From Neisseria lisongii (GTDB lineage Bacteria; Pseudomonadota; Gammaproteobacteria; Burkholderiales; Neisseriaceae), in contig NZ_CP116766.1 of assembly GCF_028463985.1 (NCBI RefSeq), positions 953,235-985,234 on the forward strand: 32,000 nt of DNA. The letters run 5' to 3'. This document shows positions 9,391 to 16,597 of this stretch, in pieces. The notes below the pieces were generated by a model that saw nothing but the letters and a program-made list of their open reading frames with translations, did not search any database and had not been told where the DNA came from. A program made the translations under genes and the position numbers. Numbering within the stretch: position 1 is the stretch's first letter; every line of letters begins with the position of its first letter.

Positions 9391-9631
9391 GGTGTAATGA
9401 ATTGCTGCACAATTCAAATCAGGTTTTCAGACGGCTTTAGCATAACCATAATATTTATAGTTAAAACACCGAATTTTCCATACAAAAGCAGGCGTATAGT
9501 AAATCAACCGAAAAAATATGACACCACAGCGAGCCACCCTTCCCCTTATATATTTCACTCCGTTAAGGGAGTGTAAATTTATCAGATAAGCCCTTGACAA
9601 GTTTAATTAACCGACTTTCAAGGGGTCTGAA

Positions 9632-10597
9632 ATGTCAACAATTAACCGTGTTTCTACATATGCTGATGATGTCATCATGCAACCGTTGCCACTACGGGCT
9701 GAATGTGCGCAGCGCATTCAGCTTCCTTGTCTAAATAGTAACAACTGCATTGAGGGTAGCAACAACTCTTCAAATACTGCCAAAACCTTACCAATCGGCT
9801 ATGAAAAATTTCTACCTAATGAAATGAAAGCTGATTTCAACCAGTTTTCTACTTCCCACAGAAAATCATCGGCTGCTTTAGAAATGAATGTCCGGCAATT
9901 TATTGAGGCATTCGGAATTAATCATGTCGGTTTTTTAACGCTGACTTTCGCCGATGATGTCCAAGATGTCAAAGAGGCTTCCCGTAGATTTCACAGTTTG
10001 CGGACGAATTTTTTAAGCAAACATTTCAAGCATTACGTTTGTGTATACGAACGCATGAAAAGCGGTCGTATACATTTTCACCTTATCGTCAATACACGTG
10101 AAAACATCCGCCGAGGTTTGAATTTCAGACAAATACAGGCCCGCAATTATACCAGTGCCAATAAAGCACTGCGACAATTATGGGCTTTGCTTCGTGAAAA
10201 TATGGGCAAGTATGGTTTCGGGCGTTCTGAATTGCTACCGGTTAAGACCAACAGCAAAGGTTTGGCGAAATACGTCAGCAAATATATTAAAAAACACATT
10301 AACAGCCGTCTTCCCGAAGATAAAGGTTACAGGCTGATTCGCACTACGATTGATAAACAGAGTTTATGGAAAATTGCCAACAGTAATTTTTCATTTGTCA
10401 GTGCTGGTTCCCGACTGTGGCGGGAACAGCTTCAGAAATGGATTATTTGCATTGAACCGTATCTTAAACAATATGCCAGACAGGAGTTTGCCCGTGAATT
10501 AAAGCCGATTACCGAAGAAAACTACAGCCAGATTTTAAGCAGCCTAATTAGCCCCAAATGGGCATTTTATAACCGGGAAACCATTTTAAATATGTAA
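9632..10597 (+). CDS. Phage rolling-circle replication initiation protein (HUH endonuclease, gpII-like).
   Basis: 321 aa. Motif 1-like FLTLTF, HUH motif RIHFHLIV and Tyr motif GLAKYVSKYIKKH. It is the first gene of the module. RBS aagggg. Confidence 0.8.
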   Translation: MSTINRVSTYADDVIMQPLPLRAECAQRIQLPCLNSNNCIEGSNNSSNTAKTLPIGYEKFLPNEMKADFNQFSTSHRKSSAALEMNVRQFIEAFGINHVGFLTLTFADDVQDVKEASRRFHSLRTNFLSKHFKHYVCVYERMKSGRIHFHLIVNTRENIRRGLNFRQIQARNYTSANKALRQLWALLRENMGKYGFGRSELLPVKTNSKGLAKYVSKYIKKHINSRLPEDKGYRLIRTTIDKQSLWKIANSNFSFVSAGSRLWREQLQKWIICIEPYLKQYARQEFARELKPITEENYSQILSSLISPKWAFYNRETILNM

Positions 10598-10607
10598 GGA
10601 ATCCATC

Positions 10608-10874
10608 ATGAGCGAACCCCAAAAGAAACAGGGATTTTTTGTTGTTGCTGCATTTGACCGCATGATTGTACGGGAACGTAAAAACGAAGACGGCAGCTAT
10701 ACCAAAACCCATTATGTCGGTTTGATTGTACGTACAGAAGAGGGCACACGTCTGTGTCAGGTACGCACCAAGCAGCCTGAAAAATACAGCCATTACAAAC
10801 TGAATGATATTGTCAATATGGAAGTATTTCCACGGGCATTTAAAGACAATATCTATTATTCGGACGAGACATAA
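10608..10874 (+). CDS. Small phage protein. From its position it is a putative ssDNA-binding protein (gpV-like).
   Basis: 88 aa, directly after rep with RBS aaggaa. The assignment rests on synteny only. Confidence 0.5.
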   Translation: MSEPQKKQGFFVVAAFDRMIVRERKNEDGSYTKTHYVGLIVRTEEGTRLCQVRTKQPEKYSHYKLNDIVNMEVFPRAFKDNIYYSDET

Positions 10875-10946
10875 TCAGAATTCACGGTTCGGGCTGCGCC
10901 GTGATGACCCCAATCAGCAGCCCACATTTTTTTGAAGGAGAAAATT

Positions 10947-11168
10947 ATGAATATCCGAAACTTGAAACACAAAGCGAAATACGCTTTGGCAGTTGCTGCT
11001 GTCAGCGTTTTATCCGCTCCGGCAATGGCTGATGACTTGCTGACAACCGCCACGACTGAATTAGGCGGCTTGAAGGCAGGTATTTTGGCTTTTGGCGGTA
11101 TCGTAATCGGTATTGCTATTGCATTGGCAACCATCCGTGTTGCTAAACGTGGCATTAATCAAGCCTAA
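10947..11168 (+). CDS. Inovirus major coat protein (gpVIII-like).
   Basis: MNIRNLKHKAKYALAVAAVSVLSAPAMA|DDLL... shows a signal peptide with AMA cleavage, an acidic mature N-terminus, a hydrophobic core GILAFGGIVIGIAIALATI and a basic C-terminus RVAKRGINQA. Strong RBS gaaggag. The track ORF begins earlier at a TTG (10932). Confidence 0.8.
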   Translation: MNIRNLKHKAKYALAVAAVSVLSAPAMADDLLTTATTELGGLKAGILAFGGIVIGIAIALATIRVAKRGINQA

Positions 11169-11182
11169 GATAGGATATCGTC

Positions 11183-11485
11183 ATGGGTTATCAAGTCGGC
11201 CGAATCTGTTATGAAACAAAAGAAGAGGCAACCAACGTCTTGATGACCCAAGTTGTACCGACGATAGACAAAGACGGGGTATTGCACCACCCCGTCTTTA
11301 ACGGCACAAACTGGATATTTCATGAACAAGTCATACAGCCGTCCTTCCCAGAGTGTGAATTTGGTGCGTATGCCCAAGCAGGTAGAGAGATAGGCGGTTA
11401 TATGGTTATGGCATTTGTTGCTCTGTTGATTGTTGTTATTTCGGTAAAAGCCATATCGTTGATAAGCGAAAGAGATGAGGAATGA
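11183..11485 (+). CDS. Phage hypothetical protein with a C-terminal transmembrane helix.
   Basis: 100 aa, with TM segment GGYMVMAFVALLIVVISVKAISLI. It sits in the packed phage operon. Confidence 0.5.
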   Translation: MGYQVGRICYETKEEATNVLMTQVVPTIDKDGVLHHPVFNGTNWIFHEQVIQPSFPECEFGAYAQAGREIGGYMVMAFVALLIVVISVKAISLISERDEE

Positions 11486-14898: not shown

Positions 14899-14947
14899 TT
14901 CAAAAAACCAATCTTGCCCGTAACATTTACAGCAACCTATGCCAAGT

Positions 14948-15020
14948 CAAGGGGAGGATGTCCAAAAAGATTTGTAAAGACAGTTTTATCGTCTTTACAA
15001 ATCTTTTTGGATACCCCTTG
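14948..15020 (+). promoter_or_regulatory. Long near-perfect hairpin in the phage intergenic region. It is a candidate packaging signal or origin structure.
   Basis: The 21-bp perfect stem tccaaaaagatttgtaaagac (14961-14981) pairs with gtctttacaaatctttttgga (14991-15011), with a 9-nt loop. It is extended by caagggg/ccccttg after a bulge. Confidence 0.5.
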
Positions 15021-15181
15021 ACGCTCCAGCCTAAAATACGCTCAAAGCAAGGTTGGGGGAGCGTTTTATTCCCCCAACCTCTGCCACATGGCGAATGTCG
15101 CCGAAGGCAAAACCTTTAAAGTTTCAAGCCCTGAATATAAACAGGTATATTGAGGGCTTGGTATTTGACGAAATACCCGGC

Positions 15182-15305
15182 AAAGCCTGCGACTTCGCCC
15201 ATTTCCCTTAAGAATCAATCTTGCGGGTTAGAAAGAAGCGCAGGCTTTCGTACATCTCAAGTTTGAACACTATCCGGGGCAGACAGCCCGCATCCATAAG
15301 GTAAA
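15182..15305 (+). ncRNA. Candidate bridge RNA (target-binding plus donor-binding loops) of the prophage IS110-type recombinase.
   Basis: The 10-bp stem AAAGCCTGCG/CGCAGGCTTT encloses an internal loop carrying TTCCCT (left flank plus core) and GGGTTAG (reverse complement of CTAACCC, the core plus right flank). Downstream, ACACTATC equals the right end plus the C of the core, and ATAAG is the reverse complement of the core plus the left end. It ends 4 nt before the ATG. Confidence 0.5.
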
Positions 15306-15308
15306 ACA

Positions 15309-16256
15309 ATGTACTACTTAGGAATAGATATTTCGAAACACACCATAGACTGCTGTCTGATTTCAGACGGCTGTTATTACGAAAAACAATTCAGCAATAC
15401 CGAAAAAGGCTTTCAAAACCTAGAACAGTGGCTTGTCGGACACCATGCCACCGAAAACCTCCATTGTTGCTGCGAAGCCACCGGAATCTATTATGAAAAA
15501 CTGGCCGAATACCTCTACTGCCGCTACATTATCAGCGTAGAAAACCCAAGAAAAATCAAAGGTTATGCACAATCCAAACTCCAACGGACCAAAAACGACA
15601 AACAAGATGCCAAACTTATAGCAGAATACTGCCGGACAAACAAACCGAAGCACTGGCAGCCACCAACACCTGAACAAAAACAATTACAGGAACTGACCCG
15701 CTATTTAACATACCTGAAACAACGGCGTGCAGCAGAACAGACCAAATGCCACCAATCCCCTGACTACATCATCAAACATATACAGGAAACACTCATCCAT
15801 CTGAACCATCAAATCCGCACCGTTAACCAACAGCTTCAAGAATTTTATAAAACCCATCCCGAATACGACACCCAACGCAGACAGCTTCAAAGCATCACAG
15901 GAATAGGAGAACAGTCCAGCGCAACCCTCCTATCCGCATACAAACGCCATCAATTTACCAACTCAAAACAATTTACCGCCTATTTCGGTCTTGACCCGAA
16001 ACAGCACCAATCAGGAAGCAGCATTAAAGGCAAAAGCAGAATATCCAAAATAGGTAGTGCAGCACTCAGAAAAAACCTGTATATGCCCGCCTTAGTAGCC
16101 TACCGCTGCAACGCCTTTCCCCAACTTACAGCCCGTTTGAGAGCCAAAGGAAAGCCGCCCAAACTGATAATTACCGCCATTATGCGTAAATTGGCTGTTA
16201 TCGCATTTACCTTGTTAAAAAACGGCGAAACATTCGATAAAACCCGATACCAATAA
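15309..16256 (+). CDS. IS110-family recombinase (PivNM/Irg-like), the putative prophage integrase.
   Basis: 315 aa. The N-terminal RuvC-like DEDD region has YLGIDISKH, CCEATGIYYE and KNDKQDAKLIAEY. The C-terminal Tnp domain has ITGIGEQSSATLLS and YFGLDPKQHQSGSSIKGKSRISKIGSAALRKNLYM. Confidence 0.9.
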   Translation: MYYLGIDISKHTIDCCLISDGCYYEKQFSNTEKGFQNLEQWLVGHHATENLHCCCEATGIYYEKLAEYLYCRYIISVENPRKIKGYAQSKLQRTKNDKQDAKLIAEYCRTNKPKHWQPPTPEQKQLQELTRYLTYLKQRRAAEQTKCHQSPDYIIKHIQETLIHLNHQIRTVNQQLQEFYKTHPEYDTQRRQLQSITGIGEQSSATLLSAYKRHQFTNSKQFTAYFGLDPKQHQSGSSIKGKSRISKIGSAALRKNLYMPALVAYRCNAFPQLTARLRAKGKPPKLIITAIMRKLAVIAFTLLKNGETFDKTRYQ

Positions 16257-16597
16257 ACACAACCGTCTAAAAACAGCACCCTGAAAAAATCAGGGTGCTG
16301 CCTATGCTTTCTATTAAGAAATGTAAAATTTATTGACGTAGCAATACACTATCTAACCCCTTCCCGCCAGCGGGACGGGGAACAAAGTGCAGGTGGCCAA
16401 CTTAGCTTGCCGATTTGTACAGAAAATTCGGTGTTTTAACTATAGGTTGAGGTTAGCGAGGCACGAGCGTAACCCAATAAAACCTTATGTTTCAAGGTAT
16501 TTCCAATCGTGTTGGGTCTCGACCCAACCTTGTATAAGAAACACCAACCACAAGATAAAATAAAAAGCCCCCGACAGAAGCAGCTATCAGGGGCGGG

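Follow-up and report, generated by a model that had tools for sequence, protein, structure and literature searches.

We describe here a 6,808 bp insert (positions 9547-16354) in a 32,000 nt stretch of the Neisseria lisongii genome (contig NZ_CP116766.1, positions 953,235 to 985,234 of the forward strand); this whole stretch is the window to which all coordinates below refer. The insert is an intact Nf-type filamentous (inovirus) prophage. Comparison of its sequence with those of its relatives makes it highly probable that the integration module of the prophage is an IS621-type bridge recombinase working with the prophage's own bridge RNA. With only slightly less confidence, we consider it likely that the Neisseria filamentous phages as a group, including the dRS3-targeting prophages of pathogenic species, are natural RNA-guided integrating viruses. 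A preliminary description of the window had proposed an IS110-style mechanism; it was right about the type of event, but overlooked both the IS621-like recombinase gene (15309-16256) and the bridge RNA upstream of it, the latter of which would explain the choice of target.

The prophage interrupts a Correia-like miniature inverted-repeat transposable element (MITE), which is 142 bp long when its halves are rejoined:

9495..9546, + strand: left half of the target MITE, ending in the left target TTCCC and the core CT (9545-9546); 100% identical to 7453-7504
16355..16444, + strand: right half of the target MITE, starting with the right target AACCC; 97.8% identical to 7507-7596

The left junction reads ...gagccacccttcccCT|tatatatttcac, with CT at 9545-9546, and the right junction ...gcaatacactatCT|aaccccttcccgccagcgggacgggg (also written gcaatacactatCT|aaccccttcccgcc), with CT at 16353-16354. 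Two uninterrupted paralogues of the MITE in the window, cacccttcccCTacccccttcccgcc and cacccttcccCTagccccttcccgcc, hold a single CT each (7503-7504 and 25571-25572, respectively). In a self-BLAST of the window, the left half (9495-9546) matched 7453-7504 at 100% identity and the right half (16357-16445) matched 7507-7596 at 97.8%. Because the two halves match an intact copy up to the CT, the insert is bounded to that dinucleotide, with no other duplication. A CT core at both junctions, present once per empty site, marks the insertion as scarless, as is characteristic of IS110-group systems with a dinucleotide core. The junction coordinates and sequences of the preliminary description were exact, and its claim of an IS110-type insertion into a MITE at a CT core, without target duplication, is borne out by the two empty copies and the self-BLAST.

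The gene closest to the right end of the prophage encodes the enzyme expected to carry out such an insertion:

15309..16256, + strand: IS110-group (IS621-like) DEDD/Ser bridge recombinase (PF01548 + PF02371)

The protein is 100% identical to that of N. lisongii / Neisseria sp. ZJ106. It aligns with IS621 (PDB 8wt6) over its full length (residues 1-314, E 1.3e-64), and with ISCro4 too. Residues D7, E56, D97, D100 and S235 (S235-G236) align with D11, E60, D102, D105 and S241 (S241-G242) of IS621, and D7, E56, D97, D100 and S235-G236 are invariant in the alignment of related recombinases. Identity to the transposases of two dRS3-flanked prophages (L099 and L100) is 57%, and the corresponding Zot proteins are 65-67% identical.

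Upstream of the transposase gene lies a 410 nt non-coding stretch that is strongly structured (fold z = -6.3 for 15040-15308). Its last 127 nt (15182-15308) fold, from the window sequence alone, into two units of stem, internal loop and apical stem (z -6.3 and -3.2), which we assign to the target and donor loops of a putative bridge RNA:

15182..15248, + strand: target loop; outer stem 15182-15196 with 15235-15248, apical hairpin 15210-15222
15202-15209, + strand: left target guide TTTCCCTT on the 5' strand of the target loop; TTCCC is 15203-15207
15225-15231, + strand: right target guide GGGTTAG on the 3' strand of the target loop
15261..15307, + strand: donor loop; outer stem GTTT 15261-15264 with AAAC 15304-15307, apical stem 15277-15289
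15267-15274, + strand: left donor guide ACACTATC on the 5' strand of the donor loop
15296-15300, + strand: right donor guide ATAAG on the 3' strand of the donor loop, overlapping the transposase ribosome-binding site

In the published IS621 model, left guides have the top-strand sense of the left flank and core, and right guides are the reverse complement of the core and right flank (PMC11208160); the window guides agree with this model in strand sense and in loop order. The left target guide, TTCCC(T)T, stands against TTCCC-CT, its TTCCC being the last 5 nt of the left flank, and the right target guide GGGTTAG is the reverse complement of CT-AACCC on the right flank at 7/7 positions. The left donor guide ACACTATC recurs at the right end of the phage as ACACTATC-T (8 nt), and the right donor guide ATAAG is the reverse complement of CT-TAT at the left end, giving five contiguous pairs and a discontiguous AU. 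At the variable positions of the target guides the fit to the flanks was 10/10, a match that we calculate to arise by chance with a probability of ~1e-6; it is an independent test because the guide columns had been fixed beforehand from the family alignment. The occupied MITE is also the sole variant in the window that matches the right target guide at 7/7 positions, the two empty copies (CTACCCC and CTAGCCC) matching at 6/7. Two other placements of the left target guide were discarded: TTCCCC at 15069, suggested by k-mer matching, lies in a helix stem, and the family alignment moved the guide to 15202-15209; a register at the conserved ...CTTG of the apical hairpin fits no flank. A search of Rfam found no family in the window at the gathering threshold, and at a relaxed threshold gave only chance miRNA-type matches to the large hairpin; none of the matches was to a curated bridge-RNA family.

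RNA guidance is also supported by covariation across the family. Relatives were gathered from genome contigs, IMG/VR viral contigs and ENA assemblies, and the arrangement of recombinase, RNA and phage genes recurs in more than 80 loci. Among 32 distinct homologues of the RNA, 26 proposed pairs in four helices are paired in 89.9% of cells, vs 29-47% when the 3' partner is slid by 1-3 columns; compensatory changes occur in 20 of the 26 pairs, and none of 500 shuffles reached the observed values. The guides vary with the insertion sites. Eleven distinct right target guides fit their own right flanks at 55/55 variable positions (permutation mean 27; 0/200,000 permutations equal), and left target guides match at 5/5 positions in five of seven classes, the other two fitting after a register shift of 1 nt. 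Examples of guides and the sites beside them are:

Guides ACGGCC (left) and AGCAAAG (right): site CAGACGGC-CT-TTGCT
Right guide TAAGAAAG: site CT-TTCTTA, left flank absent from the loci
Guides ACGACC (left) and GAAAAAG (right): site CAGACGAC-CT-TTTTC
Right guide GAAATAG: site CT-ATTTC, left flank absent from the locus
Guides CCCGCC (left) and CGCGCAG (right): dRS3 site ATTCCCGC-CT-GCGCGGGAAT, in L099 and L100

Most relatives target paired DNA-uptake-sequence terminators (CAGACGGC-CT-TTTT), others dRS3 and the N. lisongii phage a MITE, the target being an abundant intergenic repeat in every case. The donor side behaves in the same way: left donor guides covary with the right ends of the elements in at least six lineages (ACACTATC, AAGCTATC, GTAGTATC, GTAGCAT, ATATCAT and others).

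A covariance model (R1), built from phage RNAs only, found 53 further RNAs in a more distant clade of Neisseria inoviruses, whose transposases are 36-41% identical to that of the window. The left-donor-guide 7-mers of this second clade (GTAGTAT, GTAGCAT, GAAACAT, ATACTAT, ATATCAT, ACAGTAT and ATATTAT) recur downstream of the transposase in most lineages, where they are followed by CT and, mostly, by the reverse complement of the element's own right target guide; pairs of right guide and site include TGACGAG/CTCGTCA (next to a dRS3 arm), GAGAAAG/CTTTCTC and GTTTCAG/CTGAAAC. In ordinary ~1.2 kb IS110 elements of Undibacterium, Pseudomonas, Stutzerimonas, Stenotrophomonas and many other genera, the model also matched the sequence that immediately precedes the transposase, in the same orientation; the phage RNA is thus homologous to the canonical left-end RNA of IS110 elements.

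Two loci of unusual layout were seen in this survey. In the IMG/VR prophages L143 (1194-1343) and L144 (10067-10216), the bridge RNA lies on the strand opposite to the transposase gene, which recalls the 'inverted transposase' reported for Ngo-phi6 (PMC7058167).

The window supplied an internal control for the fit of guides to junctions, in the form of a second IS110 element:

16531-17770: plain IS110 element of 1,240 bp, with its transposase at 16697-17746, 176 bp downstream of the prophage

Its bridge RNA was found at 16585-16732 (R1, 30.7 bits) and its junctions read gacccaacCT|tgtataag and ttatagtatCT|acgccctg. The guides compare with these as GCCAACCU with gacccaacCT, GACGUAG with CTACGCC (6/7) and UAGUAUC with tagtatCT. 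In the self-BLAST, an empty paralogue matched the left flank precisely up to the core (16468-16530 = 25708-25646); the empty paralogous target lies at 25641-25654 on the minus strand.

The preliminary description had predicted the circle junction acactatCTtatatatt, and this sequence occurs verbatim in a related circular inovirus genome, OR148970 (L001, 2812-2828). Both this genome and the contig L110 carry ACACTATCT|TATATATT, the joint predicted for the N. lisongii element (there also written AATACACTATCT|TATATATTTCAC). The joined ends produce TTGACG-18-TATATT, which straddles the core, matches the consensus at 10 of 12 positions and is not present in the integrated state; L001 has TTGACT-18-TATATT at the same place. 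By its agreement with the consensus, TTGACG-18-TATATT is predicted to be a sigma-70-like junction promoter. The order of the whole element is core CT, -10 box, Rep to coat to TspB/pIII to pVI to Zot, bridge RNA, recombinase, -35 box, left donor and core CT. The bridge RNA begins 5.6 kb from the left core, with eight phage ORFs (open reading frames) between, and the architecture is that of an IS110 element with about 5.3 kb of phage genes added to its left end.

These features fit a model in which a double-stranded circular replicative form would join the right end of the phage to its left end (...ACACTATCT|TATATATT...), the joint making a sigma-70-type promoter that would read into rep. The bridge RNA (about 15182-15308) would bind the recombinase, and its target loop would pair with chromosomal 5'-TTCCC-CT-AACCC-3' in the multicopy MITE; on the left, TTCCC(U)U would pair to the bottom strand, and on the right GGGUUAG would pair to the top strand. 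Strand exchange by the recombinase at the CT core would then leave the insertion scarless, each junction holding a CT, and excision would be the reversal of integration. Rep, coat, TspB, the pVI-like protein and Zot would make single-stranded DNA virions and export them, presumably through the PilQ secretin of the host. We infer that the bridge RNA is expressed and that base pairing, rather than protein, selects the insertion site, as we do the direction and regulation of excision.

Several observations weigh against an RNA-guided recombinase as the integration module. The guides are imperfect: in the left target guide a U faces the first core base as a G-U wobble, and in the left donor guide a C faces the second core base. 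The right donor guide makes only five contiguous pairs and a discontiguous AU, and the left end TATATATT is invariant across the family, which places this guide beyond the covariation test. The sole consensus match to a promoter for the bridge RNA (15008-15037) is weak and not conserved in relatives. No convincing terminator was found on the + strand inside the phage operon, and read-through transcription into the bridge RNA is accordingly a predicted possibility. The sites of L090, L157 and L098 mismatch their own guides at one to two or more positions, the right flanks of L090 and L157 having at least two mismatches to the right target guide; these sites may reflect off-target insertion or later recombination. 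At the locus itself, a second N. lisongii assembly (GCA_021728675.1, L169), found by a CysN look-up, has an identical left junction and an occupied site, and an exact-protein look-up of the transposase, aimed at an empty site in another strain, gave no match. The evidence at this locus thus comes from one N. lisongii lineage, occupied in both assemblies, and this particular copy may or may not be active. All of the evidence is computational.

These points have to be set against what other explanations could account for. The view of Piv/IS110 recombinases held before 2024 would have protein alone recognize the MITE and the phage ends, the upstream structure being merely a translational or transcriptional leader. 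That the putative right donor guide overlaps the transposase Shine-Dalgarno sequence makes a regulatory role for the RNA plausible, and the expression of the RNA is predicted rather than measured. However, a leader is not expected to hold, at fixed positions, loop sequences that track both the flanks of each phage (55/55) and its own right end, and the recombinase is closely homologous to IS621, an enzyme already shown to be RNA-guided (PMC11208160, PMC11208158); we regard recognition by protein alone as very unlikely. Still less credible is the idea that the region holds two elements, a filamentous prophage that integrated by other means, such as host XerCD at a dif-like site, and an independent IS110 at its right edge. 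IS110 elements are common here, and a separate one of 1,240 bp lies only 176 bp downstream. Yet the donor guide fits the far right end, and the matching CT|TATATATT is found not beside the RNA but at the phage left end, 5.7 kb upstream; related circular phage genomes hold the recombinase, the RNA and the joined ends in one 7.5 kb circle; the same layout is found in the more than 80 loci; and there is no second pair of IS ends around the recombinase module. Integration by XerCD at dif was dropped because the element has its own recombinase and its ends match the RNA of that recombinase.

Neisseria are naturally transformable, and a third explanation, which we consider improbable though less so than the other two, is that the prophage was taken up as DNA and recombined into place through homology between MITE copies or flanking repeats, and is now a fixed, inactive remnant whose guide match dates from an older insertion elsewhere in the MITE family. 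The window is rich in DNA uptake sequences, one of them inside the transposase gene at 15362; MITE copies and a 212 bp direct repeat (9181-9391 and 17818-18029) bracket the region; the second assembly has the same junction; and such a route has been discussed for MDA by Bille et al. (PMC2212043). Against a remnant, the nine ORFs, both ends, the guides and the catalytic residues are all intact, and among the MITE variants of the window the occupied copy alone fits the right guide perfectly. As uptake would explain spread between strains and not the original choice of site, it complements integration by the bridge recombinase rather than replacing it.

The target repeat was characterized further. 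Around the core, the rejoined MITE reads …CCCTTCCCCTAACCCCTTCCC…, with the target-type site TTCCCCTAACCC. A 26 nt MITE core occurs four times in the window, against an expectation of zero by chance. The fourth of these (25371-25437, minus strand) is shorter: the CCCTTCCC-CTAN duplication is missing, and with it the phage target. The ends of the MITE, TATAGTAAATCAACCG... and ...CGGTGTTTTAACTATA, resemble Correia repeats (tatagtggattaac...; PMC5039591). Correia repeat-enclosed elements measure 69-151 bp and are bounded by inverted repeats of the type tatagtggattaacaaaaa... (PMC5039591); the likeness of the MITE ends TATAGTAAATCAACCGAAAAAA and, inverted, TATAGTTAAAACACCGAATTTT to the published repeat is only partial, and the internal core differs. 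The preliminary description had called the target dRS3-like, a reading that we have abandoned: dRS3 (ATTCCC-N8-GGGAAT) is absent from the window when searched with up to 1 mismatch, the MITE ends are Correia-like, and the CT lies outside the arms of the palindrome TCCCGC-ca-GCGGGA, which starts 7 nt after it, as that description had correctly noted. In dRS3, by comparison, the CT sits in the spacer between the arms (ATTCCCGC-CT-GCGCGGGAAT).

Other traces of the MITE and its surroundings are recorded here as observations in their own right. An inverted partial MITE end (9456-9486) lies immediately left of the occupied copy, and an isolated 23 nt copy of the palindrome core is found at 23852-23874. 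The MITE, the prophage and the second IS110 element are together bracketed by the 212 bp direct repeat, the copies of which are 92% identical, and by DNA-uptake-sequence terminator pairs. A 31 nt MITE core, CCCTTCCCCTAACCCCTTCCCGCCAGCGGGA, occurs exactly in eight non-Neisseria metagenome contigs (L170-L177) that have a GC content of 0.49-0.59 and almost no Neisseria DNA uptake sequences. All eight have the A variant that fits the phage guide; the core is set in a different outer sequence, with an inverted copy, AAGGTTAGGATGGGGGTG, before it, and this element matched no Rfam family. A metagenome search with the right-end/MITE junction found no further insertions of this phage type, and a viral-contig search with the window-type target loop gave no match.

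As well as the recombinase and its putative RNA, the insert holds a complete set of filamentous phage genes. Its nine ORFs, all on the + strand, run in the order Rep, small ORFs, coat, TspB, pVI-like, Zot and IS110 transposase; the features other than the transposase and the target and donor loops are:

9547..9631, + strand: phage left end (right-donor side); TATATATT is the -10 half of the junction promoter, 9549-9554; hairpin CACTCC-gttaag-GGAGTG, 9556-9573
9632..10597, + strand: Rep, rolling-circle replication initiator with HUH motif HFHLIV (PF23343 E 5.8e-13; phrog_3419 E 1.3e-18)
10608..10874, + strand: 88-aa ORF2, 64-72% identical to the ORF at the same position in relatives; no Pfam or PHROG match
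10932..11168, + strand: major coat protein, inovirus coat B (PF05356 E 1.6e-6; phrog_6548)
11183..11485, + strand: 100-aa conserved small virion/membrane protein at the position of MDA ORF5; 45-69% identity in relatives
11630..11929, + strand: 99-aa ORF, predicted membrane protein, an extra gene missing from relatives, between the 100-aa ORF and TspB
11926..13473, + strand: TspB-family adsorption protein, 515 aa, pIII analogue, corresponding to MDA ORF6 (PF05616 E 6.6e-64)
13474..13752, + strand: pVI-like minor coat protein, DUF2523 (PF10734 E 4e-11; phrog_1242)
13762..14898, + strand: Zot/pI assembly ATPase (PF05707 E 6e-25; phrog_197 E 1.2e-69)
14961..15178, + strand: structured intergenic region; 20 bp perfect hairpin 14961-15009, conserved stem-loops 15051-15080, 15126-15160 and 15161-15178
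16257..16354, + strand: phage right end; terminator-like hairpin 16274-16300, TTGACG (-35 half) 16333-16338, left donor ACACTAT 16346-16352, core CT 16353-16354

The same gene order is found in prophages of other Neisseria (L081-L088) and in the circular salivary inovirus genome OR148970, and the insert proteins are 41-86% identical to those of relatives. The preliminary description fared well on these points: gene order and protein families both match Neisseria inoviruses, the rep (HUH), coat, pIII-like, pVI-like and Zot genes that it listed are confirmed by Pfam and PHROG matches, and the lower GC content that it noted by eye amounts to 42.1% in the insert vs 48.2% in the remainder of the window (57% in neighbouring CysN). 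Its statement that the prophage lacks a TspB-like ORF9 has to be withdrawn, as the pIII-like ORF at 11926-13473 belongs to the TspB family (PF05616, E 6.6e-64). In MDA it is ORF6 that encodes TspB, the gene III homologue; the transposase is ORF9, and its best match was IS621 already in 2005 (PMC2212043). Pfam and PHROG searches detected no secretin domain in any insert ORF, as had been described, and virions presumably leave through the host PilQ secretin, by analogy with MDA, the only phage for which dependence on PilQ is known (PMC2212043).

Rep is 73-86% identical to the Rep proteins of other Neisseria inoviruses and has no similarity to the RstA-type Rep of L001; the PF23343 type is common to many other Neisseria prophages, including the dRS3-flanked L099 and L100. 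The 88-aa ORF2 stands where a single-stranded-DNA-binding protein is expected, and we assign it that putative function from its position. The 99-aa ORF (11630-11929) had no homologue in 160+ related loci (apart from one weak 33% match) or in 50,697 phage records, and no family match; it sits in the lowest-GC stretch of the window (0.36-0.38) and may be an accessory ('moron') gene or no gene at all.

The ends and intergenic regions of the prophage show several further features. The start CT|TATATATT is kept in all related prophages, and in L098 (75-100) the first 13 nt of the phage left end are duplicated in tandem. Just past zot lies the perfect 20 bp hairpin (CCAAAAAGATTTGTAAAGAC / GTCTTTACAAATCTTTTTGG, 14961-15009), kept in relatives and followed by a conserved GGATACCCCTTGACGCT; the hairpin is a candidate packaging signal or origin, and the region 14961-15178 as a whole may act as packaging signal or origin, may contribute the 5' part of the bridge RNA, or may do both. 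Near its 5' end, the transposase gene contains a DNA uptake sequence, TTCAGACGGC (15362-15371), which is kept in relatives (L001, about 1752-1766) and could favour the spread of the prophage by transformation. The draft assembly of L169 (11312-11867) breaks 17 bp into rep (window 9648), which could mean that more than one copy of the phage, or of the rep region, is present in that genome.

Taken as a single locus, the insert adds one member to a prophage family that is already known. Integration of Nf phages by transposase at the CT of dRS3, IS110 bridge RNAs and cargo-expanded IS110 loci are all known already, and the locus is a further Nf-type phage as well as an architectural variant of the IS621-type system, in which a whole virus is the cargo, the junction promoter is predicted to have been put to new use and the target loop has been reprogrammed to a MITE. 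In the literature that we searched, no paper links bridge RNAs with Neisseria filamentous phages or inoviruses; publications elsewhere are possible. If the proposal holds for the group, each of these phages would be a bridge system of the IS621 type that has acquired a whole inovirus genome as its cargo, and its landing site would be written in about 12 nt of bridge RNA, from which it could be predicted. The site would have been reprogrammed repeatedly in evolution (to dRS3, to DNA-uptake-sequence terminators and, in N. lisongii, to a Correia-like MITE), and the IS110 junction promoter would have been re-used to start phage replication only after excision; the promoter suggests a coupling of excision to phage gene expression. 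Such a model would provide a base-by-base, testable explanation for the 20-year-old observation that Nf/MDA phages insert at particular repeats, and an association with invasive meningococcal disease is known for one of these phages. The retargeting of a bridge RNA to many different sites in nature, all inside a single virus family, and the capacity of a bridge recombinase to carry a self-replicating cargo of 5-7 kb in nature, would also be of interest for the engineering of such enzymes.

Among known systems, the closest are the phages MDA-phi and Nf1-Nf4. They share with the N. lisongii prophage a one-strand order of Rep, small ORFs, coat, TspB, pVI-like, Zot and IS110 transposase (PMC2212043; Kawai 2005; PMC7058167), the lack of a secretin, a GC content of about 42%, insertion at a CT in a multicopy repeat and a circular form that joins the ends, which is predicted for the N. 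lisongii element. The likeness to MDA asserted in the preliminary description thus extends to the Nf-type module but not to replication, since MDA ORF1 is of the pfam02486/RstA type whereas Rep here matches PF23343 only. The hosts differ as well, N. meningitidis and N. gonorrhoeae in the one case and an animal-associated commensal in the other, and so do the targets: MDA-phi/Nf1 integrates into dRS3 (ATTCCCNNNNNNNNGGGAAT) and the N. lisongii phage into the Correia-like MITE at TTCCC-CT-AACCC. The N. lisongii phage has the extra 99-aa ORF and lacks the 67-aa ORF3 of MDA. The IS110-family transposase that Nf phages encode is known to integrate them at a CT within dRS3 (Kawai 2005; PMC7058167; PMC2212043); the Nf/MDA literature that we found describes this transposase-mediated integration with no mention of a guide RNA.

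With IS621 (PMC11208160, PMC11208158), the prophage shares a homologous recombinase with the D, E, D, D and S residues and the CT core. In both, the recombinase gene directly follows the RNA, whose target loop precedes its donor loop, and the senses of the guides agree; of the two loops, it is the target loop that varies and the donor loop that is conserved, pairing on the right-donor side is discontiguous, and the target is a genomic repeat. Both lack terminal inverted repeats. In IS621 a promoter is rebuilt across the circle junction, as is predicted for the prophage. The junction promoter of IS621 drives the bridge RNA, whereas here about 5.3 kb of virus genes lie between the core with its -10 box and the RNA, and the promoter would consequently read first into rep. 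A compact IS110 element of ~1.2-1.5 kb has its RNA directly after the core; here the two are 5.6 kb apart. The guides differ in length too, the right target guide extending 5 nt past the core, vs 2 in the 4-base guide of IS621, and the left guide being shorter. The N. lisongii element would, by analogy with related phages, leave the cell as a single-stranded DNA virion, unlike IS621.

The recently described cargo-expanded IS110 loci (bioRxiv 10.64898/2026.08.14.744561) are similar in that a recombinase and bridge RNA mobilize an element far above 1.5 kb and the guides match the flanks. Those loci carry resistance, metal and plasmid-derived cargo, whereas the cargo here is a complete self-replicating virus; the words 'filamentous', 'inovirus' and 'Neisseria' do not occur in the text of that report. 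Lastly, like the CTXphi-type inoviruses, the N. lisongii prophage is a Zot-encoding temperate filamentous phage that would borrow a host secretin, but where CTXphi relies on host XerCD at dif, the N. lisongii phage very probably brings its own, self-encoded RNA-guided recombinase.

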